In this document: piece after piece, positions 3,360 to 27,661 of the stretch
Position numbering within the stretch: position 1 is the first letter of the stretch
Layout of the letters: every line of letters begins with the position of its first letter
NCBI GenBank assembly: GCA_963835795.1
Contig: CAWIHJ010000023.1
Span: forward strand, 9,059 to 73,058
DNA length: 64,000 nucleotides
Source of the DNA: an uncultured Gammaproteobacteria bacterium
Lineage (GTDB): Bacteria; Pseudomonadota; Gammaproteobacteria; GCA-001735895
Direction: 5' to 3'
The notes under the pieces: generated by a model
Told to the model about the DNA's origin: nothing
The model's input: only the letters and a program-made list of their open reading frames with translations
The model's database searches: none
Program-made: the position numbers and the translations under genes

Positions 3360-3372
3360 GCCAGTGCCGTTT

Positions 3373-6796: not shown

Positions 6797-6903
6797 TTTC
6801 TGTGTGCTCGACAAGGGCCATTGCAGACAGTATCATGCTTTGATTCCGCCGGGTTTCGGCGGTGAATAACAACTACGAAGAGAGCATAAGAGGAGTAAAA
6901 ACA

Positions 6904-7855
6904 ATGTCCAAATTTATAAAAACCGTGTTGGCAGTGACTGTGCTGGCGCTGAGTCTTGGCGCCACATCAACGCTACAGGCCGCCAAACGTCTGACCGTTG
7001 CCGACCTTGACTGGACCGGCGCTGTAGTGACCTGCCGAACCCTGCAATACGTGCTGGAAAATGAAATGGGTTACAAGGTCAAAACCGTTACCATGCCCGG
7101 TGGTCCGGGCGCCTGGGAAGCAGTGCGTTCGGGTGATATCGATTACTATTGCGAGACCTGGCCTTCCTATAACCCGATCAAGTCGCAATACCTCAAGGAA
7201 TACGGTGGCGATGGTTCGTTGGTGAAAGTTGCCGATACCGGCATCATCGGTTTCAGCGGCTACTTCGTACCGCGCTACGTGATCGAAGGTGATGCCTCGC
7301 GCGGCATTCCCGCTTCCGCGCCGAAGCTGAAGTCCTACAAGGACATGAACCAGTACAAGCACATGTTCAAAAGCCTGGAATCGGGTGATCGCGGTAACCT
7401 GATCGGTTGTCCGGTTGCAGCCTGGCTGTGTGAAGACCAGACAGCGAATGGATACCCTGGGAGTCGATTTCTATGCGCAGGCGCTGGGTTCGGAAACTGC
7501 CCACTGGGCGGAAATGCAGGCCAAGTACAAGCGTGGTGAACCCTTCATCGCTTACGCCTGGTCTCCGCACTGGATTCACGCGGCGCTTGACCTGGTCGAA
7601 ATTGAATTGCCGGCACACAGCGATGAAAAGTGGCCAGCCACGACCTGGCCGCAGGATGTCACTTTCAAATTCACCAATCCGAATTTTCTGAAAGAAAATC
7701 CTGAAGTGGTCATGCTGCTCGAAAAGCATCGCCTGACCAACAAGCAGCAGGCGGGCATGATTTATGAAATCGACGTGAAGAAGCGCGACATGGATGAAGT
7801 GGTTGCCGAATGGATGGAAGCCAACGAATCCACCTGGCGCAAGTGGCTTCCCTAG
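6904..7855 (+). pseudogene. proX: Glycine betaine/choline-type periplasmic substrate-binding protein (ProX/OpuAC-like), frame disrupted once
   Basis: ATG 6904 follows AGAGGAG. Signal peptide MSKFIKTVLAVTVLALSLGATSTLQAAK. ORF 6862..7539 carries the N-terminal lobe up to ...NLIGCPVAAWLCEDQ. ORF 7415..7855 carries the rest (RMDTLGVDFYAQALGSETAHWAEMQAKYKRGEPFIAYAWSPHW...). The shift is near 7430-7450. Confidence 0.8.
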
Positions 7856-7902
7856 GTCGGATTAACTAGATCGATTTAACTAGATCGATTCAACAATGAT
7901 CT

Positions 7903-7937
7903 AAACCAGGCTCCTGCGGGGGCCTGGTTTTTTTTGC
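7903..7937 (+). terminator. Rho-independent terminator after proX
   Basis: AAACCAGGC (7903-7911) pairs with GCCTGGTTT (7922-7930) and is followed by a T-run to 7937. Confidence 0.75.
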
Positions 7938-7993
7938 GGTCGAAAAATCCCCCGCGATCAATAACCACCTGATGCCAGGTTTCCTGTGCTGAT

Positions 7994-9439
7994 CTAGCCC
8001 AGGTTTCCGACCCAGGCAGGCGGCCGGTACAGGTTCCATTTGAAATGTTCCTCCAACTGCGACGCCAGTTGCAGCAGGACGTGATCCTGGCAGCTATGCC
8101 CCGCCAATTGTACAGCGCAGGGATGTTCGCCGGGATTCAGTTGAATTGGCAGCGACGCCGCGGGCTGCCCGGTCACGTTGCAAATATAGGCAAATGGCGC
8201 AAACGCATGGCCGGTTTCGCCCCAGGTCTCGAAGCTGAAATTCTTGGTACGGCTATCCATTGTGCCGACAGCAATCGGGTCGCTGCCGAGCGATGGGGTC
8301 AACAGCAGGTCCAGCTCGCGCATTGAGCCCATTAACTTGAGGCTTGCTGCGTGCGCACCGTGGCGGGCACGGTAGAGGTCCATCGCGGACAATCCGGCAA
8401 CGTGTTCACGCAGGTAGCGGGTCAGGGCTTCGAGTTCGTGATCTTCCGGCGCCCGGCCGATTTCCGCGATTCGATTTTCAATTTCGTAGACGATATCCAC
8501 CATCCACAGGTCTTCCATCCAGCTACCGAGGTTCAGATCCGTCGGATACTGGTAGGAACGGATTTCATGTCCCATGTCCGCAAGTACCGCGCTTACCCGA
8601 TCGACGGCCTCGGCCTGGGCGCCACCGACCTCAAGCCCGTAAGGTGTGGATTTACAGATGCCGATGCGCAATTTTTCCAGCGGTTGGTCGAGCGCAGCGA
8701 GATAGGATTCGACTGCGGGGCGCACGTGGTAGCGGTTACCGAGCAGTGGAGCGGCACTCGAGTCGAGCGCCGCGGCGCTGTCGCGCACCGAACGGGTCAG
8801 CACGTGATCGGAGTTGAAGCCGTTGGAAATCTCCTGGTAATAGGGGCCCACCGGGTTCAAGCCGGTGGTGGGTTTCAAGCCGAATACACCGCAACAGGCA
8901 GCGGGGATGCGAATTGAACCGCCGAGATCGGTAGCATGCGCCAGTGGCACCATGCCCGAGGCAACTGCCGCACCGGCGCCACCCGAGCTACCGCCGGTAG
9001 TCACCTCGGCATTCCACGGATTCAGGGTGACGCCACGAAATGTCGGCTCGCAAACGAAATCCTCGGCAAATTCGGGCGTATTGGTTTTGCCGAGAATGAT
9101 CAGCCCGGCGTTACGCCAGCGCGCTACCAGTTCACTGTCTGGCTTGCTGCTCGCGCCATCGAAAAAGCGCGATGAAAACGTGGTCGGCATGTCCGCGCTG
9201 AACTGATTCACGTCTTTCAGCAGAAACGGGCTACCGGCAATGGGAGTGTCCGGCAGGTCGGCTGATGCACGCTGCCGGGCGTTGTCATAATTGGTCATCA
9301 CCAGGGCGTTTAGCCGTTCATTCATCAGCTCTACCGCTGCGATAGCCGTTTCCGTCACTTCCTGCGCGGACAGGTCGCCCTGCTTGATTGCCGCGGCAAG
9401 GCCGACCGCATCCAGATCGGCATATTCACTGTATTTCAT
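7994..9439 (-). CDS. Amidase-signature family amidase
   Basis: GGSSGGAGAAVASGMVPLAHATDLGGSIRIPAACCGVFGLKPT is the amidase signature. Start chosen at the internal ATG 9439 (MKYSEYADLDAVGLAAAIKQGDLSAQEV); the track ORF extends to 9499. Confidence 0.85.
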   Translation of the reverse strand: MKYSEYADLDAVGLAAAIKQGDLSAQEVTETAIAAVELMNERLNALVMTNYDNARQRASADLPDTPIAGSPFLLKDVNQFSADMPTTFSSRFFDGASSKPDSELVARWRNAGLIILGKTNTPEFAEDFVCEPTFRGVTLNPWNAEVTTGGSSGGAGAAVASGMVPLAHATDLGGSIRIPAACCGVFGLKPTTGLNPVGPYYQEISNGFNSDHVLTRSVRDSAAALDSSAAPLLGNRYHVRPAVESYLAALDQPLEKLRIGICKSTPYGLEVGGAQAEAVDRVSAVLADMGHEIRSYQYPTDLNLGSWMEDLWMVDIVYEIENRIAEIGRAPEDHELEALTRYLREHVAGLSAMDLYRARHGAHAASLKLMGSMRELDLLLTPSLGSDPIAVGTMDSRTKNFSFETWGETGHAFAPFAYICNVTGQPAASLPIQLNPGEHPCAVQLAGHSCQDHVLLQLASQLEEHFKWNLYRPPAWVGNLG

Positions 9440-9661
9440 GGTTAGCCCTGGGCTGTGGAATAGCCGCCTATTAATACGGTATAACTCGCTCAAGATCAAA
9501 TCCAGGCTGGAAACCGGATGCGGCTAATCGACTGGGATAATGACTGCATTCGTTGCGCTGGGGCTGGGTTACATCCACTCACTCCAGGTAACATAAAATG
9601 ATAAGATCAGCAGCGACACCGTAGTTTAAACCTGACCGGGTGCCTCTCCGCTGGAGCCAAT

Positions 9662-11095
9662 ATGTCCGCACACAACATGCTCATCATCATGTCCGACGAA
9701 CACACCCGCTCGGTCATGGGGGCCTACGGTAATCCATTGGCGCATACGCCAACGCTGGATAGCCTTGCGGCCCAGGGTGTACGCTTTGACAACGCCTACA
9801 CGCCATCGCCCATTTGTATTCCGGCGCGTGCCAGCTTTGCCACCGGAACCCAGGTTTTCGAGCATCGCTGCTGGTCATCGGCCGAACCTTACTACGGCCA
9901 GCAACAGAGCTGGATGCATCGGTTGCGCGAACAGGGGCACGAGGTCGCCTCGATTGGGAAACTGCATTACCGCTCGGCAGCCGACGATGTTGGCTTTAGC
10001 GAATCGCTGTTGCCGATGTACCTGGCCAATAACGGCCGTGGCTGGCCACAAGGTCTGCAACGCAAGCCGATGGGCGACTTCCCCGATACGGTTGAGCTGG
10101 CTAAAGAATTGGGCCCTGGTGAAACAAGCTATACCCAATATGATCGTGACATTGCCGCGGCGGCCGTCGACTGGATAAGCCAGCGTTCTGGCAAGGTTTC
10201 CGCAAAGCCATGGGTGTTGTTCGTGTCGTTTATCTGTCCCCATTTTCCACTGTCGGCGCCACAGCAATTTTTCGATCTCTATGACGATGTCGAATTACCG
10301 TCGGCCTATGATCGTGATCCACAGACACGCCTCAAGCATCCGGTGATCGATGCCATGCGCGGGTTCTGGGACTACGCGGATTACTTCGATGCGGATAGCG
10401 AGTTGCTGGGGTTGAAAAACTACTACTCCCTGTGCAGTTTTCTCGATGACAATGTTGCGCAGGTGCTGGGCGCGTTACAGGTCAGCGGGCAGGATGCGAA
10501 TACGCAGATTGTTTATACCAGCGACCACGGCGACATGATCGGTAATCACGGTATCTGGTGTAAATCCTACATGTACGAGGATTCGGTCGGTATTCCAATG
10601 ACCTTGACGGGACCGGGTATCGAGCCGGGTACCAATTCGACCCCGGTATCGCTCACCGACCTCGCCAGCACCGTCGAACTGGCGGTGGGCGCGAACCCGG
10701 CACCTGCCGATCAGGATTGGCAGGGTCGCCCATTGCAGCATTTCCTCGGCGCACCCGAAAGCGAGCGGCTAGTGATCAGCGAGTACCACGACGGTGGCAG
10801 TCCCTGCGGTTTCTACATGCTGCGCCGCGGGCGCTGGAAACTGGTGTTTTTCGCCGAGGGCAATCCGCCGTTGCTGTTCGATCTCGAACTCGATGCGCGC
10901 GAAATGACCAACCTCGCGGAAGATCCGGCGCACGCGTCGATCCTGCGCGAACTGATCCGGCAACTGCATGAAATCCTCGATCCGCAAGCGGTCAATCAGC
11001 AGGCGTTTACGGACCAGGCGCAAATGATCGAGCGGCTGGGCGGCATGGATGTCATCCTGTCAATGCCGAGTTTCAACCACACGCCACTCGATTAG
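9662..11095 (+). CDS. Formylglycine-dependent sulfatase family protein (aryl/choline-sulfatase-like)
   Basis: N-terminal MLIIMSDEH and the C-x-P-x-R motif in TPSPICIPARASFATG; later YTSDHGDMIGNHG. 477 aa. Confidence 0.8.
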   Translation: MSAHNMLIIMSDEHTRSVMGAYGNPLAHTPTLDSLAAQGVRFDNAYTPSPICIPARASFATGTQVFEHRCWSSAEPYYGQQQSWMHRLREQGHEVASIGKLHYRSAADDVGFSESLLPMYLANNGRGWPQGLQRKPMGDFPDTVELAKELGPGETSYTQYDRDIAAAAVDWISQRSGKVSAKPWVLFVSFICPHFPLSAPQQFFDLYDDVELPSAYDRDPQTRLKHPVIDAMRGFWDYADYFDADSELLGLKNYYSLCSFLDDNVAQVLGALQVSGQDANTQIVYTSDHGDMIGNHGIWCKSYMYEDSVGIPMTLTGPGIEPGTNSTPVSLTDLASTVELAVGANPAPADQDWQGRPLQHFLGAPESERLVISEYHDGGSPCGFYMLRRGRWKLVFFAEGNPPLLFDLELDAREMTNLAEDPAHASILRELIRQLHEILDPQAVNQQAFTDQAQMIERLGGMDVILSMPSFNHTPLD

Positions 11096-12038
11096 ATCGA
11101 TTTAAGTTCCCCAATCCCTATGCCCTGTTCCCCGGCGAGGGCATAGAGCAGGTAAATGCGTCCGTCTTCCTGGTAAATGGCGGGATCGCGCAATTGATTG
11201 GCGCGCTGCATGATGCCGCCATAGCGAGATGCCGTAGCGGGTAAGTCAGCGCCTTCCCAGTCACGCCGGGCGCGGTGTACCTCGACGGCTGCGCCGAGGC
11301 GCCATCGCTGCCAGTCGCCATCGGTGTGCAAGGTCGATACCAGGATACGTTCCGGAGAATCGCCCACCCGCGTCCAGAACAGGTACCAGCGGCCTTCGAA
11401 TTGCAACAGCGCGTGGTGGCGAATCGGTTCGCTGGTAAGTTTGGGACCTGCTTCAAAGTCGGTGAGTCCATCGCGTGAACGGTACAACTGTGCCGGCATG
11501 GCGAGCGCGTAAAACCAGTCGTCGATACGAAACAGGCGCAGATAAGGGGAGCCCAGGATTTGCGGGCATGCGTTGAATTTCAGCCCGTTGTCGGAAACAG
11601 CAACCCGGCGTGCGCTGCAGGCCGTTGTCGAGACGGCCGTGATAGTAAAGGCACAGTTGTCTGATTTTCCTCGTCAATCCACAGGTCGGGAGAAGCGATG
11701 TGCGGGTAATTGCCGTCCTGATCGTTTTCGATGTAGCTCCTGGCCTCGGGATCGAGCGCTTCCATCGCGGGAGGAGTGAATGCGAAAAGGCTGTCTTCAA
11801 GTGCCAGTGGCGGTGGTTGCTGCAGTCGCCAGGGACCTTGCAGATGGTCGCTTAATGCCAGACGAATCGAGCGTCCCTCGTGATGCGCAAAGTAGAGCAG
11901 GTATTTTGCCGGGGCGGGATCGACCCAGGCGGGGCAACGAATCAGCGACGGCCCGTTGACGTTGCCATCGAGTTCGCTCCAATGATCAGCGCTGATGATC
12001 GGCGCATCGGTCAGGTAGTCAAACTTGAACACGCTCAC
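11092..12038 (-). pseudogene. Beta-propeller glycosyl-hydrolase-like protein of unknown function, last gene of ABC operon 1, two frame disruptions
   Basis: Three fragments read continuously after frame changes. Fragment 1: MSVFKFDYLTDAPIISADHWSELDGNVNGPSLIRCPAWVDPAPAKYLLYFAHHEGRSIRLALSDHLQGPW...DLWIDEENQ. Fragment 2: QLCLYYHGRLDNGLQRT. Fragment 3: RVAVSDNGLKFNACPQILGSPYLRLFRIDDWFYALAMPAQLYRS...YLLYALAGEQGIGIGELKSI*. Shifts are near 11655-11670 and 11601-11617. The family call rests on recalled motif resemblance only. Confidence 0.35.
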
Positions 12039-12048
12039 GCCTGCGCGT

Positions 12049-13692
12049 CTAAGCGGAGGTGACGCCCTTTTCGGCTCTCGCCTTCAGCAGGTCAGTCAGC
12101 CAGTCGGGATCCATCTCTGGCACCGACGACAGCAGCAACTCGGTGTATTCGGGGTAGGGTGGTGACAGAATTTCACTCTTCATGCCCTGTTCGACGACCT
12201 GGCCCTGCAACATCACCACGATTTGATCGGAGATGGCTTTCACCGTGGCGATGTCGTGGGTGATGAAGATGTAGGTCAGGTCGAGTTCGCGTTGCAGACG
12301 CAACAACAGTTCGAGAATACCTTTCTGCACGATCTGGTCGAGCGCCGAGGTGACTTCGTCGCAGATGATCAGTTCCGGATTAGCCGCCAGCGCACGCGCG
12401 ATGCAGATGCGTTGTTTTTGGCCACCCGATAACTCCGCCGGCAATCGATCGATAAAGGTTTCGTTGAGTTCGATCATTTCCATCAGTTCCATCAGGCGAT
12501 TGTCGCGTTCGCGCCCCCGCAGCCCGAGATAAAATTCGAGTGGACGGCCGATGATATCGCGTACCGTATGGCGCGGATTCATCGCCGTGTCGGCCATCTG
12601 GTAAATCATCTGGATCTTTTGCAATTGATCGACACTGCGACCAGCGAGTGTTGGCGGCAGGGCTTTACCGTCGAACAGAATCTGGCCCTTGGAGGGCGGC
12701 AACAGGCCGGTGATGACGCGTGCCGCGGTCGACTTGCCCGAACCCGATTCACCGACGATCGCAACCGTATGGCCACGCGGCACTTCGATGCTGACGTCGT
12801 CGAGCACCTTGGCACTGCCGGTGTAACTGGCATCGATGTGGTCGACCTTGAGAATAATGTCGCCCGAACGTTCTTCCGGTTTGTCGATCGAGCGCACCGA
12901 CCACAGTGACTTGGTGTATTCCTTTTCCGGATGCGACAGCATTTTGCGCGTCTCGGCGTCTTCGATGGTTTCACCGTAGCGCAATACCTTGATGATATCG
13001 GCCATTTGCGCGACCACCGCGAGATCGTGGGTGATGTAGATCGCCGCGGTGTGAAACTGTTCGACGATTTGTCGCATCGCGGCGAGCACTTCGACCTGGG
13101 TGGTTACGTCCAGCGCCGTGGTGGGTTCGTCAAAAATGATCAGGTCGGGGCGCGAAGACATCGCCATGGCAGTCATCACGCGTTGCAACTGGCCGCCGGA
13201 AACCTGGTGTGGAAAACGGTCACCGATGGTATCGGGGTTGGGCAACTGCAGGTCGCGATACAGTTTGCGCGCATCGGCCTTGGCCTCGGCTTCCGATTTG
13301 ATGTTGCGACGCACCGTCGACTCGACGGTTTGCTCGATCAACTGGTGCGCCGGGTTGAAGGATGCCGCCGCCGATTGGGCCACGTAAGCAATTCGGGCAC
13401 CGCGCAAGGCGCGTCTCTCGGCCGCCGGCATTTTGATCAGATCCATGCCGTCGAAGGTGATGCTACCGCTGGTAATGCGGCATCCGGCACGCGCATAGCC
13501 CATGGCGGCGAGCCCGAGCGTCGATTTGCCGGCGCCGGATTCACCGATCAGGCCCATGATTTCGCCGCGTCGCAGGGTGATGTCCACGCCCTTGACGATT
13601 TCATGCCAACGATCGTCGCTGTAGCCGTCGATCACGATATCGCGCATTTCCAGCAGGATATCGCCCTTTGTTCCCATTTTCTCTTCACTCAT
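12049..13692 (-). CDS. Dpp/Opp-type ABC transporter ATP-binding protein with duplicated ATPase domains
   Basis: Two Walker A motifs (GESGAGKST, GESGSGKST), two signatures ([18 protein letters not shown]) and two Walker B motifs ([22 protein letters not shown]). 547 aa. Confidence 0.9.
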   Translation of the reverse strand: MSEEKMGTKGDILLEMRDIVIDGYSDDRWHEIVKGVDITLRRGEIMGLIGESGAGKSTLGLAAMGYARAGCRITSGSITFDGMDLIKMPAAERRALRGARIAYVAQSAAASFNPAHQLIEQTVESTVRRNIKSEAEAKADARKLYRDLQLPNPDTIGDRFPHQVSGGQLQRVMTAMAMSSRPDLIIFDEPTTALDVTTQVEVLAAMRQIVEQFHTAAIYITHDLAVVAQMADIIKVLRYGETIEDAETRKMLSHPEKEYTKSLWSVRSIDKPEERSGDIILKVDHIDASYTGSAKVLDDVSIEVPRGHTVAIVGESGSGKSTAARVITGLLPPSKGQILFDGKALPPTLAGRSVDQLQKIQMIYQMADTAMNPRHTVRDIIGRPLEFYLGLRGRERDNRLMELMEMIELNETFIDRLPAELSGGQKQRICIARALAANPELIICDEVTSALDQIVQKGILELLLRLQRELDLTYIFITHDIATVKAISDQIVVMLQGQVVEQGMKSEILSPPYPEYTELLLSSVPEMDPDWLTDLLKARAEKGVTSA

Positions 13693-13698
13693 AGCTAC

Positions 13699-14652
13699 TC
13701 AGTCCTTCAGGCCGCTGGATTTATGCAGGAACCAGTCGACCACGAAATTGACCGCCACGGTCAGCAGCGCGATCGCGGCAGCGGGCAGCATCGGTGTCAT
13801 GGCGGCGGTGAAATCATACTCGGCAAACTGGATCAGGCCCGCGGTTTCGCGCACCATCGACCCCCAGTCGGCGGTGGGTGGCTGAATGCCGACACCGAGG
13901 AAGGAAAGGGCGGCTATGGTCAGGAATACGAAGCAGAAGCGCAGTCCGAACTCGGCCACCAGCGGCGGCATGATGTTGGGCAGAATTTCGCGGTACAGTA
14001 TCCAGAACATCTTTTCACCACGCAGTTTCGCGACTTCGACGTAATCCATGACCACGACGTTCAGCGATACCGCACGCGCGATACGAAATACCCGGGTCGA
14101 GTCGAGTACCGCGATGATGATGATCAGGTTGAGCGTGTTGGCGCCGAACATCGACAGCAGGATCAGCGCGAAGATCAGGCTCGGAATCGCCATCAATACA
14201 TCGACCGAGCGACTCAACAGGTTGTCGAGCAAACCGTTGTTATTGATCGCCGCGGTAATGCCGAGACCACCGCCGATGACAAATGCGAACAGTGTGGTGA
14301 CGAAGGCGATGCCGACCGTGTTGCGCGCGCCGTAAATCAGCCTGGAGAGCACGTCGCGCCCGAGTTGATCGGTGCCAAACATGTATTCGTCGCTCCACGG
14401 CGCGTAGGATAGCGAGAATATTTCGGCTTCACCGAACGGCGCCAGCAATGGCGCGAAAATGGCGAAAAAAACGTAAATGGTGATCACCGTGAGACCGAAC
14501 AGCGCGGTCGGCGGTGCGGTTTTCAGGCCTCGCCAGACGTTCTCTTTCAAGGTACGACGCGCCTTGATTACGCCGACTTCGCCGGCCGCCGAGTATCCCT
14601 GGTCGCCGAGATCTCCCGACTCTTCGGGAGTATTGTCTTTTGGATTATTCAT
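13699..14652 (-). CDS. ABC permease, DppC/OppC-like
   Basis: 317-aa multi-TM ORF with the binding-protein-dependent permease core (LGTDQLGRDVLSRLIYGARNTVGIA...). It overlaps the upstream permease by 4 nt. Confidence 0.85.
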   Translation of the reverse strand: MNNPKDNTPEESGDLGDQGYSAAGEVGVIKARRTLKENVWRGLKTAPPTALFGLTVITIYVFFAIFAPLLAPFGEAEIFSLSYAPWSDEYMFGTDQLGRDVLSRLIYGARNTVGIAFVTTLFAFVIGGGLGITAAINNNGLLDNLLSRSVDVLMAIPSLIFALILLSMFGANTLNLIIIIAVLDSTRVFRIARAVSLNVVVMDYVEVAKLRGEKMFWILYREILPNIMPPLVAEFGLRFCFVFLTIAALSFLGVGIQPPTADWGSMVRETAGLIQFAEYDFTAAMTPMLPAAAIALLTVAVNFVVDWFLHKSSGLKD

Positions 14653-15632
14653 CGTGGATGCAACAGCCGTGGGTTAGTGATGATGGATATGATGTCCGCA
14701 AACAGATTAAGCAGGATGTAGGTTGCCGCGAAAATCATCGCACAGCCCTGAACCACCGGAACATCGCGCGTGGTCACCGCATCCACCATCAGTTGCCCGA
14801 CCCCGGGATAAACGAACACCACCTCGACGACCACCACGCCAACCACCAGGTAGGCGAGGTTGAAAGCGATGACCGTGACGATTGGCGCCCAGGCGTTGGG
14901 CAGCGCGTGGCGCAGGATGATTTCTGCTTTGGACGCACCCTTGAGGTCAGCCATCTCGATGTACGGGCTTGCCATCAGGTTGATGATCGCCGCACGCGTC
15001 ATGCGCATCATGTGCGCGACGATGACCAGCGTCAGCGTCAGCGCGGGCAGGGCGGTCAGGTAGACCCGGTCCCAGAATTGTTCGTCCGGGCTGATATTGG
15101 CGAGCGATGGAAATACCTTGGTAAATGACGACAGTCCCAGTATCAGCAGGTAAGCAACGAAAAATTCCGGGAAAGAAATCGTCGTCAGGGTTAGCGCGTT
15201 TACCGTTCGATCGTAAATCGAGTTTCGATACAGGGCCGCGGTAATACCCAGGAACAGCGCCAATGGCACCGAGATGATGGCCGCCATCGACGCCAGGAAA
15301 AGCGTGTTGGCAAGTCGCGGCGCGAGTAATTCAATGACTGGTCGCGATCGATCGCTCCCTCCCGACGAGCCACGGCCAGAGAAGGAGTTGCCCATATCCC
15401 CGGTGAGGATACCGCCCAGCCAGTCGAAATAACGTTCGTGGATTGGCAGGTCGAGTCCCAGTTCGCGACGAAACGCGGCCACGGTTTCCGGCAGTGCCGA
15501 CTGACCGAGTATTGCCTGGCCAAAATCGCCTGGCAGGAATTCGATTGAACTGAACAGGATCAAGCTGACCACGAATAGCGTGACCAATCCCAGGCCAAGC
15601 CGTTGCAGTATGGTGCGTATCACTGGATGCAC
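14649..15632 (-). CDS. ABC permease, DppB/OppB-like
   Basis: 327 aa, starting MHPVIRTILQRLGLGLVTLFVVSLILFSSIEFLPGDF, with SPYIEMADLKGASKAEIILRHALPNA typical of DppB-type permeases. Confidence 0.85.
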   Translation of the reverse strand: MHPVIRTILQRLGLGLVTLFVVSLILFSSIEFLPGDFGQAILGQSALPETVAAFRRELGLDLPIHERYFDWLGGILTGDMGNSFSGRGSSGGSDRSRPVIELLAPRLANTLFLASMAAIISVPLALFLGITAALYRNSIYDRTVNALTLTTISFPEFFVAYLLILGLSSFTKVFPSLANISPDEQFWDRVYLTALPALTLTLVIVAHMMRMTRAAIINLMASPYIEMADLKGASKAEIILRHALPNAWAPIVTVIAFNLAYLVVGVVVVEVVFVYPGVGQLMVDAVTTRDVPVVQGCAMIFAATYILLNLFADIISIITNPRLLHPR

Positions 15633-15765
15633 AGTGTTTCCCCCTCAGATTTTGATGACCTTCAGCCACCGTTTTATAATCGGTCGCTTACAGCCTTTTA
15701 TTTTTTTGCTGCAAAAACATAGCGGGTAATGGGCGTCATTGCCCATTACCCGTGTTACTACCCTA

Positions 15766-17370
15766 TTAAGCGAACCACCAGCGTTCGGCGTTCTTGTTGC
15801 CGTCAAACTCCCAGTTACCGGCGAGTTTTTCAGGGGTGCCGATTTGCTTGCTCACCGCGTGGATGTTGTTGGCATACATCGGAATCAGCGCGCCACCGTC
15901 GTCGTTGACGAGTTCCTGGGCTTCGAAATACATGGCCTCGCGCTTCTTGGTATCGAGTTCCGAACGTGCCGCCAGTACCAGCTTGTTGAACTTGTCGGCA
16001 GCCGGACCGGTTCTCCAGTCGGTGTCGTTCCAGTTGCCGTCGGCCAGGTAGGCTGAAGTAAACATCCAGTCCGCAGTCGGACGACCGCCCCAGTAACAGG
16101 CGCCCCAGGCTTTCTTGTTCCACACGTTCGACCAGTAACCATCCTTTGGCTCACGCACCACGTTGATGTTGAGACCCGCATTGGAGGCCGAATCCTTGAT
16201 CAGCAGTGCGGCATCGACGGCGCCGGAGAAAGCCGCTTCGGAAGTGCTGAGATCGAGCGTGACGCCTTCCATACCGGCTTTCTTGAGGTGGAACCTTGCC
16301 TGGTCCGGATCGTACTTGCGCTGCGGCATCACGTTGTTGTGAAACGCCTGCGAGGCGGAAATCGGGTGATCGTTGCCCAATGCGCCATGGCCGAGCAGAA
16401 TCTTCTGTACCAGCGCTTCACGATCGACCGACAATTTCACCGCCATGCGCAGGTCATAGTTGTCGAACGGTGCTATGGTGACGCGCATCGGAAAGGTGTA
16501 ATGCAAGGTGCCGGTCACTTCGAGAATATTGATGTTCGGATTGCGTCCGAGCAGGTGAACCGTTTTCGGATCGACGCGGTTGATCGCATGCACGTCCTTG
16601 TTCATTACCGCATTTTGACGCGCAGTGGTGTCGATCAGGGCAATCATTTCGACTTCATCGAAATGTGCGCGGTCTGACTTGAAGTAGTTGGGATTGCGCT
16701 TGTAGGTAGTGCGTACGCCCGGCTCGAAGCGATCGATAATGTAACCACCGGTGCCGAAGCCGGCCTGCCAGTCCATTGCGCCGTTAAATTCCGGGAAAAT
16801 CGCGAAGTGATAGTCGCTCAGAATGAATGGGAAGTCGGCATTGCCTGCGTTGAGCTTGAAGGTGACTTCATTGGGCCCAGTCTTCTTCATGTCTATTACT
16901 GCTTCGATCAGCGATTTACCCGCCGATTTGGTATCTTCGCCCCGATGGTGATTCATCGATGCGATGACGTCTTCCGGAGTCACTGTCTTGCCGTTATGAA
17001 ATTCGACGCCCTTGCGCAACTTGATAATCCAGGTCTTGGCGCCGTCTTTGGCTTCGTAGCTTTCAGCCAGTTCGGGAACGAGTTCGCCGTTGTTGCCGAC
17101 TTCGAACAGGTGGTTGGCGTAGGTATAGACCATGTTTTGCATGAAGCCGTTTTCATGGGTGCCGGGGTCCAGCGAATCGGTCGTCGATCCGTGCGCGGTG
17201 CCCATGACGAACTTGCCGCCGCGCTTGGGCATGGCCGCATGTACGGATTGAGTCAGCAGGCTGGCTGCAAACGGGGCGGCAAGTCCCATTGCGCCGGCCA
17301 GGCGAATGAATTCACGACGTTCGAGTTTGCCTTCTCTCGTCGCTTTTTCGAGATCTTTGATATCTGCCAT
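15766..17370 (-). CDS. ABC substrate-binding protein, family 5 (DppA/OppA-like), Tat signal
   Basis: Twin-arginine leader ERREFIRLAGAMGLAAPFAASLL followed by a family-5 SBP body (PELAESYEAKDGAKTWIIKLRKGVEFHNGKTVTPEDV). 534 aa. Confidence 0.85.
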   Translation of the reverse strand: MADIKDLEKATREGKLERREFIRLAGAMGLAAPFAASLLTQSVHAAMPKRGGKFVMGTAHGSTTDSLDPGTHENGFMQNMVYTYANHLFEVGNNGELVPELAESYEAKDGAKTWIIKLRKGVEFHNGKTVTPEDVIASMNHHRGEDTKSAGKSLIEAVIDMKKTGPNEVTFKLNAGNADFPFILSDYHFAIFPEFNGAMDWQAGFGTGGYIIDRFEPGVRTTYKRNPNYFKSDRAHFDEVEMIALIDTTARQNAVMNKDVHAINRVDPKTVHLLGRNPNINILEVTGTLHYTFPMRVTIAPFDNYDLRMAVKLSVDREALVQKILLGHGALGNDHPISASQAFHNNVMPQRKYDPDQARFHLKKAGMEGVTLDLSTSEAAFSGAVDAALLIKDSASNAGLNINVVREPKDGYWSNVWNKKAWGACYWGGRPTADWMFTSAYLADGNWNDTDWRTGPAADKFNKLVLAARSELDTKKREAMYFEAQELVNDDGGALIPMYANNIHAVSKQIGTPEKLAGNWEFDGNKNAERWWFA

Positions 17371-17607
17371 TCTAAAATTCCTCAGGTAATTATTTGCATG
17401 AGTCCCTGTCTGGGATCTTGTTTAATCGGAAGTTTACTGTCCGCCAGAGTTAGACGGCGTTGAATGCACTTCGTTCATTCGGTCTTTGTAACATAGGACG
17501 GGGTAGCGTATCAATTTTTTACTGGGATTCCTGAAATGAGGGGTGGCTTACCCTGGCGGCCAGCTGCAATCACAGCATTTTTGCTCGACTACAACAATAA
17601 GCAGCGC

Positions 17608-19138
17608 TCAGGCGCGAGCTTCCAGCTCGATTTTGCGTCGAGCGACATATTCCTGTAACGCGTCATCGATTCCCGGGTCGATGGCAGGCTGTTGATATTC
17701 CGCGAGCAGTTGCTTCCAGATCTGGTTGGCGCGCTGTTCGGTGTTGACCGAACCGGCTTCGAGCCAGGATTCGTGGTTACTCCAGTTCGACAGGAGCGGT
17801 GCGTAAAAGGCGTTCTCGTAGCGTGACATGGTGTGTTCGGCACCGAAGAAGTGCCCGCCGGGACCCACTTCACGGATGGCATCGCGCGCCAGGGTTTCGG
17901 CGTTGACTTCGAAGGGTTCGAGACTGGCCGCCACCATCTGCAGTATTTCGGCATCGATGATCAGTTTTTCCAGCGACGCGGTGAGCCCGCCGTGCAACCA
18001 GCCGGCCGCGTGCTTGATCATGTTGGCCTGCCCGGATATCGCCCCCCACAGCGACAGACAGCTCTCGTAGGCCGCCTGCGCGTCGGGGCAGTTGGCGGCG
18101 TTGACGTTACTCGAGCGAAACGGCACGCGAAGTCGCCTGGCCAGTTGTCCCGAGGCCTGGGCCGCCTGCAGGTATTCGGGCGTGCCGAAAGCGGGTGAGC
18201 CGGTCTTCATGTCGACATTTGAAGTAAACCCCCCGTAGAGCACCGGCGCGCCGGCGCGCACGATCTGCGTCAGTGCAATGCCCGCCATGGCCTCGGCATG
18301 CTGCAGCGCAAGCGCCCCGGCCAGCGTGATGGGCGCCATGGCCCCGGATAGCGTGAACGGGGTAATCGCCGAGGCCTGCCCATGTTCGGCCAGGGTGATC
18401 AGGCCTTCGGCCATCGGAATATCGAGTTGCAGCGGGGTGTTGGTGTTGATAATTCCGCACAGGGCCGGTGTTTCGATCAGATCCTTCGGGGCTTTTGCCG
18501 AGACTGATGGCCATCATGTTGATGGCATCGAGGGTTTGCCCGCGCCCCATGGTCCAGGGCACCCAGTTCTTGTCGAGCAAGGTGCACTGGGCATAAAACA
18601 GGTCCAGGTGACGGCTCGGGGCAGGCAGGTCCATGGCTTCGAAACCACCGCCGCCATCCTGGTGCAAAATGTCGAGGCTTTGCACCAGGCGAATGAAATC
18701 GCACATTTCCGCATAGCTGCCGGTGCGCCGGCCCTTGTCTGCGTCCATCACGTAGGCGGGACCTCCCACCGAGGTGAAGATCGCGTGTCCAGCGCCAATG
18801 CGCAAACGCTTCGCCGGATTGCGGGCTTCCAGGGTAAAGCTTGCTGGGGCTTTGGCGATCAGCGCTTCGACCAGCGCGGAATCGAAGCGAACCCGTTGGC
18901 TGGAATTGTCCACATCGAATCCCGCCTTGCCATAATGCATGCGCGCCGCATCCGACAGGATCGTCATGCCGGTTTCCTTGAGTATCGACAGGCCCGCCAG
19001 GTGAATGCTTTCCAGCGCGTCGTCTGACAGCAGCGCGTAGGGCGGATTGTAATAGCGCAGCGGCTTCCAGGGTGGCTGTGCGAGCGTGCCGGAGGTGCGG
19101 ATCTTGCGTGCACCGCGGCGGCGTGATGGCTGGGTCAT
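17608..19138 (-). pseudogene. mttB: MttB-superfamily (COG5598) methyltransferase, non-pyrrolysine type, one frame disruption
   Basis: ORF 18107..19138 (MTQPSRRRGARKIRTSG...LSDDALESIHLAGLSILKETGMTILSD...MMAISLGKSPE) joins ORF 17608..18414 extended upstream (DLIETPALCGIINTNTPLQLDIPMAEGLITLAEHGQASAITPFTLSGAMAPIT...GGHFFGAEHTMSRYENAFY). The shift is at the CCCC/GG runs around 18483-18491. The start overlaps the stop of the upstream flavoprotein gene (ATGA). Confidence 0.8.
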
Positions 19139-21211
19139 GAAAGTCTCCTCGGCAGGTTGTCAGGGTCAGGATTTAGCGGTTGTAGCAAGGCGCGTTCGCG
19201 TCGGCACAGCAGGCTGGCAGGTGGTGCATCGAATTCGCGCGCGAATTTGTGCCCGCTGTAGACCGCATCGGCGATGCTCGAGGGCACCAGGCAATCACCA
19301 ATGCGGGTGGCGTCGACATCGAGTTGATCGAACAGCTCGTGCCTGGCGCTGCGCCCGGTGACCAGTACCAGGTGGTCAAACTCGTGCCTGAAGGTTTTGC
19401 CACTGTAAGTGCAACGGCTGGTCAGGCATTGGCTGTCAATCGATTCTGCTGTTTGCGAAAAGACCATTTGCAGGCCCATTGCGGACAATTTCTTTTGAAT
19501 GAACTCCTGCTCGTCGGTCATCACCGTCCAGGCTGAAACCATCAGTTGCGGCGTCAGGTAAGTAACCGTCGATCCCTCGGCGAGCAATTTCTCCGCCAGT
19601 GCGCCGCCCATCATGTAGTGTTCATCGTCGTATATCAGCACCCGACCGGATAACCTGGTGCCGGCAAACAAGTCGTCGGGCGTATGGATGCCGGCGCTCG
19701 CGGCGATGCTGATCGGGTGGTGCAGGCTGGCGCCTTGCCCATCGCGCCGCCACTGGCTGCCGGTGGCGATGACCACGGCATCGGCGCCAAATTCGCGAAT
19801 CTCGGCGGCGCGTAAGCGGGCTGTCGAGGTAAATTTCGACGTTGGCCATTTGCGCCAGCAGGTGAGCGCGATAATCGCGCACGCGAATCCAGTTTTGCAG
19901 ACCAGGCAGCGAAGCCTCGTGGATGACGCGGCCACCGAGTGCTGTGCCGGCTTCCGACAGGGTCACCTGGTAGCCGCGACGCGCCAGGCTGAGCGTGGCT
20001 TCGAGACCCGCCGGGCCGCCTCCGACCACGAGGATCGAGGCATCCGATTTGGCCGCGGTCGATTTTCTCCGGGTGCCAACCGCGACGCCATTCTTCGCCG
20101 ATGGTCGGATTCTGCGTACAGCGTAAAGGTGAGGCCTCGTTATTCGCCGAACGACAGATGTTGCAACCAATGCATTCGCGAATTTCATCTTCGCGCCCGT
20201 TATCGATCTTGTGCGGTAAAAACGGGTCGGCGATTGACGGTCGCGCGGCGCCGATGAAATCCTGCACGCCGCGTTTGATCTGATCGACCATGGTATCTGG
20301 TGAAGTAAAACGACCAACGCTGACTACGGGTTTCGAAGTGAGGGATTTGACGATGCCGGCGTACTCTTGCTGGAAGCCTTCAGCCGAAAAGCGCGAACTG
20401 CAGGAATCGTTGCCAAGACTGCCGCCCAGCGCGATGTCCCAGAGATCCGGGAGTTCGCCCAGCAATTCGATGATCTGGCGGCCTTCATGCATCGGCTTCG
20501 ATCCCCTCCGCGCCCTGCAACTTCGTCGATCGCAAGGCGCACCGCAACCGCGCAGCGATCGCCGACCGCTGCTCGCGTATCCTCGATCAATTCGCGCAAC
20601 AGGCGGCAGCGGTTTTCCAGCGAACCCCCGTATTCGTCGCGGCGATGATTGGTCAGCGGCGAGAGGAACTGGAAGGGCAGGTAGTCGTGACCGGCATACA
20701 CGTAAATGATGTCGAAACCGGCCTGCTGCGCGCGCATCGCGGCGTCACGATGCCACCCCCTGAAGGCCGCGATGTCGTCGAGTTCCATGCCTTTCACCTG
20801 GGTCGGATTCAGGTATTTCGCCGATACCGCACTAGGGAGCGAGCGCGACTTCGCGCGTGCCGCGATTATTCGCGTGACTAGCCGCCGTGCCACAGTTCGA
20901 TGCCGGCCAGCGCGCCATGTCGGTGAATGGCCTCACAGGTAATCTGCCAGCTGGCTGCATGTCTTCGTCGTCCCACAGGCTCAGGTAGGCAAACGGGGTT
21001 TCGTCGGAACTCGGGTGAATCGAACAATACTCGGTGCAGACAACGCCCCAGCCACCTTCCGCCTTGATGGCACGCAGGGCGGCTGAACTGTTGGGTTTCA
21101 TGTTACCCATGCCGGTTGCGTGTGGTGTCTGGTAGAAACGATTGGGTGCGGTAACCGGACCAATCTTGAACGGGTTCGAAGAGGCAGATCGTAACGAGGG
21201 TTTCTGGACAT
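19135..21211 (-). pseudogene. Trimethylamine/dimethylamine-dehydrogenase-family Fe-S flavoprotein (OYE-like FMN barrel + 4Fe-4S + ADP/FAD-binding domains; StcD/N-methylproline-demethylase-like), about 7 frame disruptions
   Basis: The fragments read in order as:
- MSRNPRYDLPL / NPFKIGPVTAPNRFYQTPHATGMG...WDDEDMQPAG
- QITCEAIHRHGALAGIELWHGG
- SHANNRGTREVALAP
- SAVSAKYLNPTQVKGMELDDIAAFRGWHRDAAMRAQQAGFDIIYVYAGHDYLPFQFLSPLTNHRRDEYGGSLENR...AVRLAIDEVAG
- MHEGRQIIELL...IRECIGCNICRSANNEASPLRCTQNPTIGEEWRRGWHPEKI
- SDASILVVGGGPAGLEATLSLARRGYQVTLSEA...ANVEIYLDSPLT
- AAEIREFGADAVVIATGS...IGDCLVPSSIADAVYSGHKFAREFD
The Cys motif and CTQNPTIGEEWRRGWHPEK closely resemble trimethylamine dehydrogenase (TMADH). 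Confidence 0.8.
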
Positions 21212-21240
21212 GGTTTTCGGGTCTCGTCACGTTTAATTTA

Positions 21241-21258
21241 GTTGAACGATCGTACAAC
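21241..21258. promoter_or_regulatory. 18-bp near-perfect palindrome in the divergent flavoprotein/TetR promoter gap (candidate TetR operator)
   Basis: GTTGAACGATCGTACAAC matches its own reverse complement at 16 of 18 positions. It sits between the flavoprotein start (21211, minus strand) and the TetR start (~21300, plus strand). Confidence 0.45.
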
Positions 21259-21299
21259 AAGGGATAAGCTGGCGCAATTATTTTTAAGCCCGGAAATAA

Positions 21300-21940
21300 A
21301 TGTGGTCGCTAAAAGCGAAGGAAAAACAGGCATTTAGCCGAAAATCGGCTGCTACGAGACGCGCGAGAACTGATCGCTGCGGGAATTGCCTGTCTCGGCA
21401 AAGGCGGCATGGCCGGTTTTACCATCGACCAGATTTGCAAGCAGGCAAGGGTATCGCGCGGACTGGTAAACCACCATTTCAAATCCAAGGACGAATTGCT
21501 GTCCTGCATTTACGCCGAGATGACCGATCACCTGGTACAGGATTATGCCACTGCGAAAACACCCGTGACCTGCTCGCGCAAATCATCGAAACCAGTTTCG
21601 ATGAAGACGACCTTCAACCGTTCAAATTTGCGCGCCTGGCTGGCGATCTGGGGGCAGGTATCAAGCAATCCAGCACTCAGCCGGCTGCACAAGCAACGTT
21701 ATGATTATTATCGGCAAAGAATTATTGCGCGCCATCAGCAACAGCAGTTTCGGGCGCCGATGAACGCCTCAACACGAAAGTGTGGCGCGCCAGCTCATCG
21801 CCATTATCGATGGTCTCTGGCTTGAGTACTGTTTACACTCGGAGAGTTTTTCGCTGGCCGCCGCGAAGGCGGATTGCTACCAGTTTCTCGAAGCCTACGG
21901 GATCAAGATCACAGCCCGGCCCAGAACCGCAAAGGAATAG
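21300..21940 (+). pseudogene. TetR-family regulator, BetI-like, multiple frame disruptions
   Basis: The HTH segment ARELIAAGIACLGKGGMAGFTIDQICKQARVSRGLVNHHFKSKDELL is followed, in changing frames, by three further pieces. These are RDLLAQIIETSFDEDDLQPFKF, then RAWLAIWGQVSSNPALSRLHKQRYDYYRQR, then ARQLIAIIDGLWLEYCLHSESFSLAAAKADCYQFLEAYGIKITARPRTAKE* (stop 21938-21940). The WLAxW...LIDGLWL pattern matches E. coli BetI. The exact start is uncertain. Confidence 0.65.
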
Positions 21941-21944
21941 AGTA

Positions 21945-23231
21945 TTGCCGCGTCGTCCCGTTACTTTTAGTGCCGCCCTGGGTTCTTCCTGGGCATTATT
22001 GCTCGGTTTCGGCATCCTCATGCTGGGCGACGGCCTGCAGGGCACACTGCTCGCCATTCGTGCGGATCTGGAAGGCTTTTCGGCGACCCTGACCGGCCTG
22101 GTCATGTCGACCTTTTACCTGGGTTTCCTGTTCGGCTCGATCCTGACCCCGCGGATTACCATCAAGGTTGGGCATATCCGTGTGTTTGCCGCTTTCGCCG
22201 CGCTGTCTTCTGCCGCCATCCTGGTGCACGCGCTGGTGGTCAGCGTGCCGGTGTGGATGGCGATGCGGCTGTTGAGTGGCTTCTGTTTTGCCGGTTTGTA
22301 TATCGTCGCCGAGAGCTGGTTGAACGATCGTGCCACCAATGAAACGCGCGGCAAGTTGCTGTCCATGTACATGGTAGTCACCTACATCGGTGTCGGTTCG
22401 GGCCAATTGCTGTTGAACCTGGCCAACCCACTCGATTTTGAACTGTTTATACTGACTTCGATTCTGATTTCGGTTGCCGTGGTGCCGCTGCTGCTGTCGG
22501 CTGGATCGCCACCGACCTTTCACGATTCGGTACGCATCAGCCTGTGGCAACTGTTTCGCCTGACGCCGCTCGGCATCGTCAGCATGTTTGCGGTCGGGCT
22601 GGTCACCGCGACCTTCTTCGCGCTGGGGCCGGTATACGCGCAGCGCATCGGTCTCAGTATTCGCGATATTTCCTATTTCATGACCGCGGCGGTGGTCGGC
22701 ACGGTGATATTGCAGGGCCCGATCGGGGCACTTTCCGACCGTTACGATCGGCGCACGGTGCTCACCCTGGTAACCATACTGACATCGGTGTCGGCGTTGG
22801 TCTGCATACCCGCGGAGCAAGTCTCAGGCATGGCCCTGTTCGCCGCCGTTGCGCTGTTTGGCGGGCTGGCGTTTCCGCTGTATTCGATTTGTATCGCTTA
22901 TACCAACGACCACCTCGACCCGAAGCAGATGATCGCGGCCAGCGGTGCGCTGGTGATGGTCGGTGGGCTCGGCGCGATTACCGGGCCGGTGCTGATTGCC
23001 ATGATCATGGATGCCTACGGACACCAGTCGCTGTTCTGGTCGATCGCGGCGATCCATGGTTTGACCGGGGTGTTTGCGATCTATCGTATGTTGCGCAGCG
23101 CCCCGGTGCCCATGGATCGCCAGGGTCACAGCACCGCGACGGCGGTTCATCCGTCGGGATCAGCCATCGAATCGATACAGCAATACGCCAGCGAAGAATA
23201 CGAAGCGGTAGTCTTCGCGGAACGGCATTGA
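21945..23231 (+). CDS. MFS transporter (YcaD-like family)
   Basis: 12-TM-like ORF containing GHIRVFAAFAALSSAAILVHA...LLSGFCFAGLYIVAESWLNDRATNETRGKLLSMY. Start placed at TTG 21945, 7 nt after AAGGAA. The 5' part of track ORF 21780..23231 belongs to the TetR tail region. Paralogous to 29639..30928. Confidence 0.75.
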   Translation: MPRRPVTFSAALGSSWALLLGFGILMLGDGLQGTLLAIRADLEGFSATLTGLVMSTFYLGFLFGSILTPRITIKVGHIRVFAAFAALSSAAILVHALVVSVPVWMAMRLLSGFCFAGLYIVAESWLNDRATNETRGKLLSMYMVVTYIGVGSGQLLLNLANPLDFELFILTSILISVAVVPLLLSAGSPPTFHDSVRISLWQLFRLTPLGIVSMFAVGLVTATFFALGPVYAQRIGLSIRDISYFMTAAVVGTVILQGPIGALSDRYDRRTVLTLVTILTSVSALVCIPAEQVSGMALFAAVALFGGLAFPLYSICIAYTNDHLDPKQMIAASGALVMVGGLGAITGPVLIAMIMDAYGHQSLFWSIAAIHGLTGVFAIYRMLRSAPVPMDRQGHSTATAVHPSGSAIESIQQYASEEYEAVVFAERH

Positions 23232-23278: not shown

Positions 23279-23661
23279 CTAGAGCTGATCGAGTAACCGG
23301 TCGATGTACTGTGTCCGCAGCGCGATGTCTTCCTGCAACAGGCGGATCTCTTCCTTCAGCATGGCTTTCAGGTCCAGGCCCTCGGCTTTCGCCATCTTGA
23401 GTTGTTCGAGTTCGTGCAGCGCTTCGCGAAATGCGGGAGTGCTGGCATACAGGTCTGGGTTTTGCGGGTGCCGCTGTCGACCATCACCGATTCCTTCACC
23501 TGCGGAAACTTGTAGCGCCGGATGACCGGCAGCAAGGATCCTTTCTTGCGGCTGTAGGCGATCTGCAATACATCGGTCTTGCCGACCGTGTAAACCGCGA
23601 ACTTTTCGATTTCTTCGGGGTGCCGGATACCCATTTCGGTCAGTTTCGGATACTTGCTCAT
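23279..23661 (-). pseudogene. DUF3461-family small protein, one frame disruption
   Basis: MSKYPKLTEMGIRHPEEIEKFAVYTVGKTDVLQIAYSRKKGSLLPVIRRYKFPQVKESVMVDSGT then continues in another frame. That frame reads PQNPDLYASTPAFREALHELEQLKMAKAEGLDLKAMLKEEIRLLQEDIALRTQYIDRLLDQL* (stop 23279-23281). The shift is near 23455-23475. Family assigned from memory of DUF3461 N-termini. Confidence 0.5.
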
Positions 23662-23695
23662 AATTTTTCCTCAGGTAGATTAATATCAGGACTGA

Positions 23696-25591: not shown

Positions 25592-25596
25592 CTGTT

Positions 25597-26554: not shown

Positions 26555-26571
26555 GGTTATATCCCCTCGAA

Positions 26572-27524: not shown

Positions 27525-27661
27525 TGGATGAATTCCCCCTCGATTATTGTCTTTTCAACTTATAAGCATCCATACATTTTACTCATCGTTCATTCCGTGA
27601 ACTCAATTTATATCGTGGTACCGATTTGCGCATCTACAACCGGGCAGTTAGATTATCTACA

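Follow-up and report, generated by a model that had tools for sequence, protein, structure and literature searches.

A conserved flavoprotein–MttB gene unit with a probable operator in an uncultured gammaproteobacterium: a candidate module for quaternary-amine demethylation

Quaternary-amine demethylation by proteins of the MttB superfamily is known from aerobic Proteobacteria. Aerobic Ruegeria pomeroyi demethylates glycine betaine by means of pfam06253 proteins, as proteomics and knock-outs have established (Mausz et al. 2025, PMC12478193). They work together with MtgC, a corrinoid protein, and MtgD, a pterin methyltransferase, both of which are encoded at unlinked sites and also serve in a split methionine synthase (PMC12478193). 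The mtgC gene also occurs in marine Gammaproteobacteria. Up to seven pfam06253 paralogues, with substrates that are not known, are present per genome, and the MttB paralogues of marine and soil Proteobacteria are thought to feed the methyl groups of N-osmolytes into a shared B12-dependent route (PMC12478193). Here we describe a locus of this known kind in a 64,000-nucleotide stretch of DNA from an uncultured gammaproteobacterium (contig CAWIHJ010000023.1 of assembly GCA_963835795.1; hereafter the window). The locus encodes an MttB-superfamily methyltransferase, an Fe-S flavoprotein of the trimethylamine dehydrogenase (TMADH)/histamine dehydrogenase family and a TetR-type regulator.

The characterised quaternary-amine methyltransferases of anaerobes (MtgB DSY3156, MtpB, MtcB, MtyB and MthB) belong to the same superfamily as the window protein, and share with it the TIM-barrel fold and the lack of pyrrolysine. 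Their genes adjoin or share those of a dedicated corrinoid protein and activase, unlike the window locus. In MtgB, glycine betaine is bound by Y97, R312, H348 and F356, of which R312 and H348 hold the carboxylate and Y97 and F356 are aromatic (Picking et al. 2026, PMC13080624). In the catabolism of proline betaine (stachydrine), a Rieske demethylase, Stc2 or HpbBC, acts first and is followed by the flavin-dependent N-methylproline demethylase HpbA/StcD (PMC3950512).

As with MtgBCD, the methyltransferase of the window locus is a pfam06253 protein from a marine proteobacterium that looks aerobic, and neither a corrinoid protein nor a pterin methyltransferase is encoded beside it. The MtgBCD genomes contain several pfam06253 paralogues, and flavoprotein demethylases follow the removal of the first methyl group. 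Unlike in MtgBCD, the window MttB lacks the aromatic residues that bind glycine betaine, and the follow-on enzyme is a translationally coupled TMADH-family flavoprotein, not one of the dimethylglycine dehydrogenase or sarcosine-oxidase type. The locus also has its own TetR gene and operator, and transporters of the peptide-type ATP-binding cassette (ABC) and major facilitator superfamily (MFS) kinds. The coupled partner, the dedicated repressor and operator, the transporters and the non-glycine-betaine pocket set the locus apart from the characterised cases, and no description of a flavoprotein–MttB module was found in the literature. Like the stachydrine pathway, the module would demethylate a betaine in two steps, with a flavoprotein taking the second methyl group; the first step would be a B12-type methyl transfer and not an oxygenase reaction. 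Genes for a Rieske oxygenase, a betaine ABC system and AcnX also lie near the locus. StcD/HpbA presumably belongs to the same flavoprotein family as the window protein.

We propose, with a probability of about 0.6, that the module is a working, substrate-inducible system that would catabolise a quaternary amine, in which MttB would act first, the flavoprotein second, and the corrinoid protein would be supplied in trans. What rests on observation is that the proteins belong to their families, that linkage, operator and catalytic residues are conserved and that the genes are under purifying selection; the catalysis at each step, the partners of the enzymes and the type of substrate are predictions.

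The conserved unit and its regulator

The features of the locus, with the evidence that identifies them, are as follows.

21300..21944 (about), plus strand: BetI-like TetR repressor gene (Pfam TetR_N and BetI-type TetR_C_6)
21241..21258, no strand: probable TetR operator, the 18-nt palindrome GTTGAACGATCGTACAAC (inverted-repeat search)
19135..21211, minus strand: Fe-S flavoprotein gene, TMADH/histamine-dehydrogenase family (Pfam Oxidored_FMN, Pyr_redox_2 and OYE-like pieces, in three frames)
17608..19138, minus strand: non-pyrrolysine MttB-superfamily methyltransferase gene (PF06253 in two pieces)
15766..17370, minus strand: family-5 (Dpp/Opp/Nik-type) periplasmic binding protein gene, 534 aa, intact (SBP_bac_5, PF00496, E 2e-64)
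15723..15752, minus strand: stem-loop and T-run just 3' of the binding-protein gene (terminator-like scan)
14649..15632 and 13699..14652, minus strand: two ABC permease genes, intact (Pfam BPD_transp_1 twice)
12049..13692, minus strand: fused double ATPase gene, 547 aa, intact (two Pfam ABC_tran domains)
11092..12038, minus strand: beta-propeller protein gene, about 312 aa (no Pfam match)
21945..23231, plus strand: MFS transporter gene directly 3' of tetR (Pfam MFS_1)
9662..11095, plus strand: choline-sulfatase-like gene, convergent (Pfam Sulfatase)

The open reading frame (ORF) listing and Pfam agree with the gene content and order given in an initial annotation of this DNA. The tetR gene lies divergently on the plus strand, as had been described, and the ATGA at 19135-19138, in which the flavoprotein stop and the MttB start overlap, confirms the reported coupling of the two genes. 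The minus-strand genes had also been described as one unit with six products. The genes are all present; seven are named, however. Because a 237-nt gap separates mttB from the binding-protein gene on its 3' side and the hairpin at 15723-15752 is strong in the terminator-like scan (12 pairs, 8 of them G-C), the unit may be two transcripts rather than one. The hairpin is probably an intra-operon attenuator or stabiliser. At the far end of the unit, the stop of the propeller gene overlaps the convergent sulfatase gene.

The window's own lineage consists of uncultured marine Gammaproteobacteria whose MttB proteins are 73-89% identical, with intact loci L001, L084, L085 and L086. L001 is syntenic with the window at about 78% nucleotide identity over 16 kb. 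All four loci hold together the TetR gene and the MFS gene that adjoins it and would be transcribed with it, the flavoprotein gene, mttB and the convergent choline-sulfatase-like gene. The other genes vary. L001 and L085 have the ABC importer, L084 lacks it, and in L086 it is accompanied by a CocE/NonD (S15) hydrolase; a non-orthologous Dpp-type system stands in for it elsewhere. Three of the four lineage loci have the propeller gene.

A wider comparison covered 80 species-genome loci, in which the best MttB match is 69% identical; what follows holds among the matches listed. Where MttB is at least 56% identical, a flavoprotein gene lies directly upstream of mttB in nearly all loci with enough upstream sequence; the exceptions are L012, from a Leisingera metagenome-assembled genome (MAG), and L015, and in L013 the arrangement is divergent. 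Where MttB is less than 56% identical, the flavoprotein gene is absent in every locus. The pairing spans Alpha- and Gammaproteobacteria, usually with translational coupling retained, and Mesorhizobium and Rhodobacterales share the core made up of the operator and the genes for TetR, flavoprotein and MttB. In RefSeq annotation, one gene order is common to plasmids of Mesorhizobium sp. B2-1-8 and Fuscovulum ytuae, namely FAD-dependent oxidoreductase, trimethylamine methyltransferase family protein, CocE/NonD hydrolase, five-gene Dpp-type ABC system and TetR. When the locus was compared with plasmids by megablast, nothing beyond weak matches to ABC genes was returned. Because operator, TetR, flavoprotein and MttB recur while the transporters and the hydrolase-like accessory genes vary, the conserved unit, as judged by comparison of these loci, is the former set. 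The flavoprotein–MttB pairing singled out in the initial annotation is thus a conserved one, from Alpha- to Gammaproteobacteria.

Variation within the unit is seen in two places. A complete 3.7-Mb gammaproteobacterial MAG (L003 10001-14745; GCA_020354435.1, CP070646.1) encodes an 80%-identical MttB together with the binding protein and two permeases, the second of them truncated, and has no flavoprotein or TetR gene; the module seems to have been partly dismantled there. In Mesorhizobium, the MttB proteins of L005-L011 and L087 are about 96% identical to each other and their flavoproteins only about 52%, as if one flavoprotein had replaced another beside a retained MttB.

The regulator was examined through its intact L001 orthologue of 211 aa. 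It scores 111.7 against TIGR03384 (BetI), for which the cut-off is 201.3, and so falls outside the BetI equivalog; the BetI-type C-terminal domain PF13977 is present. The palindrome GTTGAACGATCGTACAAC sits 30 nt upstream of the flavoprotein ATG, with a chance expectation of 0.04 in the window. It is near-invariant in five gammaproteobacterial loci with diverged flanks, the one substitution being in L001. In Mesorhizobium, loci L005, L007 and L087 have the same core at the matching position upstream of their flavoprotein genes. From its position and conservation, the 18-nt palindrome is the probable TetR operator. A near-copy with two mismatches, GTTGAACGATCGTGCCAC, occurs at 22319-22336, inside the MFS gene 3' of tetR, and could be a second repressor site or a chance match.

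The two enzymes and the corrinoid partner

The MttB protein is 509 aa long after frame repair and 84-89% identical to intact metagenome proteins. Its two PF06253 pieces cover profile positions 3-213 (E 6e-48) and 235-499 (E 6e-119), which makes it a full-length member of the family. The pyrrolysine MttB model TIGR02369 gives 280.8 bits against a cut-off of 525, and the repaired frame has no internal stop (no in-frame UAG), in agreement with the non-pyrrolysine assignment made before. The nearest structures in the PDB are 4YYC (E 7e-98), a putative trimethylamine methyltransferase of no known function, and MtgB 9YCE/2QNE, which aligns from end to end (phmmer E 1e-87) with only moderate identity.

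The residues aligned to MtgB Y97, R312, H348 and F356 are Gly, Arg, His and Gly. As in the quaternary-amine methyltransferases of anaerobes, the Arg for the substrate carboxylate is conserved (R312, with H348), which suggests a substrate that bears a carboxylate. Since both aromatic residues are replaced by Gly, the substrate should be a different and probably bulkier one. The substrate class is thus probably a quaternary amine with a carboxylate, bulkier than glycine betaine. Specificity for glycine betaine itself was rejected on the loss of the MtgB cation-pi pair Y97/F356, and trimethylamine specificity of the module was likewise rejected on residue grounds.

The flavoprotein is about 688 aa long after frame repair. 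Its intact orthologue aligns over its full length with histamine dehydrogenase (3K30, E 4e-197; 6DE6), with TMADH 1DJN (E 3e-161) and with structure 6L6J, of which no description was found in the literature. It has the three-domain architecture of TMADH and histamine dehydrogenase (1DJN/2TMD, 3K30, 6DE6): an OYE-like FMN domain, a 4Fe-4S motif of the CxxCxxC...C type and an ADP-binding domain are all found, and the window translation shows ECIGCNICRSANNEASPLRCTQNP and VVGGGPAGLEA. The four cluster cysteines, the Y169/H172/D267 triad, R222 and Y60 are retained. On this sequence evidence the flavoprotein is a genuine member of the TMADH/histamine-dehydrogenase family.

It differs from both enzymes at the cofactor and substrate sites. 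The position of Cys30, which forms 6-S-cysteinyl-FMN, is Ala (PHATGMG in the window and L001, against PHCIGAG in TMADH and PHCNGMG in histamine dehydrogenase), as it is in 6L6J. Of the TMADH aromatic bowl only Y60 remains, with Leu in place of W264 and Asn in place of W355 by our own residue count. Because of the changes at W264 and W355, trimethylamine was rejected as the substrate of the flavoprotein, and histamine is presumably not its substrate either.

The corrinoid partner was sought in the window and in related loci. No B12-binding, pterin-binding or RamA domain was found in the sizeable window ORFs scanned; about ten large ORFs, including hscA and the operon at 23696-29211, were identified by homology or by eye and not by Pfam. 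A tblastn search with two MtgC-like proteins (from L035 and L042) had no match in the window or in the fetched loci other than their own. Loci with the flavoprotein–MttB module are all free of corrinoid genes over the surrounding 10 kb, and a B12-binding gene occurs within 10 kb in only two of about 90 fetched loci. Most hits of a regular-expression screen for the B12-binding motif were false positives, Pfam upholding 2 of 10. Within the 64-kb window, these searches agree with the initial annotation, which had listed no corrinoid protein, activase or CoM/THF methyltransferase. It had presented this lack in an aerobic host as a puzzle. Because MtgC and MtgD of aerobic Ruegeria are unlinked (PMC12478193), the absence of a linked corrinoid gene is instead the expected arrangement. 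Plasmid sequences show the same separation, with MtgC gene and MttB paralogues either 500 kb from each other or on separate replicons. Sinorhizobium sp. K101, for one, does not have MtgC on the replicon that bears the MttB paralogue and the flavoprotein homologue.

The two MtgC-like proteins, L035 2058-2819 and L042 11058-11771, come from different Alphaproteobacteria and share 81% identity, and their identity to genes of Mesorhizobium, Aminobacter, Sinorhizobium, Paracoccus and Shinella is 83-95%. This unusually strong conservation is consistent with a shared core role of MtgC.

Frame disruptions, proposed pathway and alternatives

The genes of the module are interrupted in the presented sequence, as the initial annotation had hinted. 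Frameshift-aware alignment of the window with the proteins of the intact syntenic locus L001 confirmed about 17 disruptions in four module genes. The flavoprotein gene has nine or ten, with insertions near 21184, 21168, 20955, 20946, 20880, 20837, 20521, 20487, 20057 and 19819. There are four frame errors in tetR (near 21366, 21556, 21606 and 21775), one +1 insertion in mttB (near 18470-18496) and two +1 insertions in the propeller gene (11663 and 11608). When events inside and outside the module are taken together, 19 of 22 are +1, and paired insertions would account for the remaining three. Neither stop codons nor deletions are seen once the frames are repaired. The ratios of nonsynonymous to synonymous change (dN/dS) against L001 after repair are 0.084 for the flavoprotein, 0.076 for MttB and 0.17 for TetR. 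For comparison, MttB has 0.072 and TetR 0.186 between the intact loci L001 and L085, and there is no excess dN on the window branch. All four related loci with gene calls (L001, L084, L085 and L086) are intact.

The window was drawn from a single 91,444-bp metagenome contig, and the relatives are labelled 'MAG: Gammaproteobacteria bacterium'. An independent assembly is available for part of it: window 828-3769 is covered by Logan contig L090 (run ERR12040029), to which it is 99.9% identical. The alignment has a single gap, an extra G in the window near 3554 that breaks proV. In L090, proV ends 14 nt ahead of the next gene. The Rieske gene was the sole exact-sequence look-up that returned an independent contig; look-ups of the MFS, sulfatase, ATPase, binding-protein and neighbouring ATPase sequences returned none. 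Further single-base insertions outside the locus lie at 7441, 23451, 26020, 27406 and 27452, with ORF breaks near 36265. The genes broken outside the locus are proV, opuAC, DUF3461, two permeases of the neighbouring ABC operon and probably an aminotransferase gene.

The +1 bias, the low dN/dS, the intact relatives, the metagenomic origin of the contig and the gap against L090 favour assembly error over decay, and the frame disruptions are most likely mostly or entirely of this kind. This largely answers the worry of the initial annotation that the locus had decayed. A practical warning follows for the whole contig: because of its many single-base insertions, apparent pseudogenes should be treated as probable assembly errors and not taken as biology.

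With the frames repaired, a pathway can be proposed by analogy with Ruegeria MtgBCD. The BetI-like TetR would bind the palindrome between the divergent genes and be released by the substrate or a product. The substrate would enter through the Dpp-like ABC importer, the MFS carrier or both. MttB would move one N-methyl group onto the Co(I) of a corrinoid protein encoded elsewhere, and an MtgD-type enzyme would then hand the methyl group to tetrahydrofolate. The Fe-S flavoprotein would oxidise the resulting tertiary amine to formaldehyde and a less methylated amine, with electrons probably passing to electron-transfer flavoprotein. The GH43/GH130-like propeller, or the CocE/NonD hydrolase elsewhere, would probably trim a conjugated substrate or product. 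Enzymes of the TMADH type require the lone pair of the amine, which a quaternary amine does not have. The predicted order, MttB and then the flavoprotein, follows from this requirement, and the same order in the initial annotation is upheld on chemical grounds. The logic would parallel the conversion of glycine betaine to dimethylglycine and sarcosine, with a flavoprotein of a different family.

Several points weigh against this proposal. The enzyme activities assigned in this clade are predictions, as is the substrate class. The flavoprotein lacks the FMN-anchoring Cys and two of the three aromatic-bowl residues, and its substrate class is an extrapolation. The corrinoid, pterin-methyltransferase and activase genes of the organism are presumed, and an Rfam scan of the window found no riboswitch, including those for cobalamin or tetrahydrofolate. 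None of three repaired MttB variants is in the protein collection. Fourteen of the frame events fall in the 2.7 kb of the flavoprotein gene and tetR and none in the 5.3 kb of transporter genes, a clustering that would also fit targeted inactivation, and the single insertion compared with independent data is the one in proV, outside the locus.

Read differently, the two enzymes could share a regulator without acting in sequence on one molecule. The flavoprotein might, for example, oxidise a histamine- or polyamine-like amine or release a side-chain aldehyde, with MttB acting on a separate betaine. Its closer match to histamine dehydrogenase than to TMADH fits this, as do the loss of W264 and W355 from the trimethylamine-binding bowl and the company of flavoproteins only about 52% identical with near-identical MttB proteins in Mesorhizobium. 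However, the ATGA coupling and the one shared operator point to a single pathway, and MttB acting on a quaternary amine would yield exactly the type of tertiary amine that the flavoprotein family oxidises; we regard this alternative as unlikely. Somewhat less credible still is an MttB that works without a corrinoid in this clade, either by passing the methyl group directly to tetrahydrofolate or by only presenting the substrate to the flavoprotein. The outcome would be an oxygen-tolerant, B12-independent quaternary-amine demethylase. Such a role would suit two genes that are translationally coupled and co-inherited across bacterial classes, with no corrinoid gene within 10 kb of a module-bearing locus and no cobalamin riboswitch in the window. 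Every characterised member of the MttB superfamily, however, methylates a corrinoid (PMC13080624, PMC8604678), and the aerobic MtgB with experimental support likewise has no linked corrinoid gene (PMC12478193). The window MttB also aligns end to end with MtgB, and Mesorhizobium, a genus that carries the module, has highly conserved MtgC-like genes as well.

The strongest version of this idea, to which we give little credence, is that the flavoprotein–MttB pair is a self-contained cobalamin-independent demethylase whose MttB-fold subunit works with the flavoprotein or tetrahydrofolate. If true, it would be new chemistry for the MttB superfamily, and operator, TetR, flavoprotein and MttB would form one cobalamin-independent cassette carried between Alpha- and Gammaproteobacteria. 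Decay of the locus into a non-functional copy in this strain, with real frameshifts, is very improbable. The number of disruptions, their concentration in the flavoprotein gene and tetR next to clean transporter genes, and a relative, L003, with only MttB and a truncated transporter would agree with it. The errors are nevertheless almost all insertions, stop codons and deletions are absent, dN/dS is not raised, unrelated genes carry like errors and one error is missing from the independent assembly; on these grounds true pseudogenisation was rejected. A working MttB-then-flavoprotein pathway with the corrinoid protein in trans remains our preferred reading.

Accessory genes, neighbourhood and significance

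The binding protein, two BPD_transp_1 permeases and an OppD/F-type ATPase make the importer a member of the Dpp/Opp/Nik family-5 group. The binding protein begins with ERREFIRLAG...VHA/A, a twin-arginine signal when judged by eye, as the initial annotation had it. Its best PDB match is AapF 7KZ8 (E 6e-26), and it stays below the cut-offs of the specific NCBIfam equivalogs (DppA, NikA, GsiB and the opine-binding CntA). The permeases and double ATPase are 91-96% identical to their L001 orthologues, and the MFS protein, whose gene falls beyond the interval of the initial annotation, is 91% identical to its L001 counterpart. An earlier argument on the substrate had been built on the peptide/opine type of the importer. 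The family-5 assignment stands; the importer is accessory and not core, being absent from L084 and replaced elsewhere, and the argument has to be qualified.

The propeller protein has no match in Pfam, NCBIfam or PDB sequences, and its 6814 homologues are all unnamed or 'hypothetical'. An AlphaFold model of an intact orthologue (pLDDT 94) predicts a five-bladed GH43/GH130-like propeller, and Foldseek matches it to GH43/GH130 structures (E 2e-9, TM 0.55-0.64) at only 10-15% identity. The beta-propeller call made from the sequence is thus supported by the model, in which the likeness to GH43/GH130 enzymes is at the fold level only.

The convergent sulfatase gene scores 261 against the NCBIfam choline-sulfatase cut-off of 433. 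It is part of a stretch at window 373-11095 that also encodes the large and small AcnX subunits (cis-3-hydroxyproline dehydratase family), a GbcA-like Rieske oxygenase that falls below the GbcA cut-off, a ProV/ProW/OpuAC betaine-type ABC system and an amidase. These neighbours recur in L084 and L086. As predicted from its genes, the stretch is a conserved island for methylated-osmolyte use, and its genes may hint at a hydroxyproline-betaine-like or sulfated substrate. Beyond the MFS gene, at 23282-29211, lie a DUF3461 gene and a second Dpp-like ABC operon (23696-29211; binding protein, two permeases and a 631-aa double ATPase), present in all four related loci. Further along, an isc cluster at 55127-59864 encodes IscR, an IscS-like protein, IscA, HscB, HscA and ferredoxin, with no iscU-sized gene between those for the IscS-like protein and IscA. 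The aceA and aceK genes on which the initial annotation had drawn in arguing for an aerobic host are found in the window. A tRNA scan of the window found none.

The clade is tractable, with a fixed flavoprotein partner, its own repressor and operator, and cultured carriers in Mesorhizobium (sp. B2-1-8 and M. neociceri CCANP35), Fuscovulum (F. ytuae YMD61) and Rhodobacter (sp. KR11). The identity of its substrate would add a methylated nitrogen currency. From it one would further learn whether the coupling of B12-dependent to flavin-dependent demethylation is a routine arrangement.

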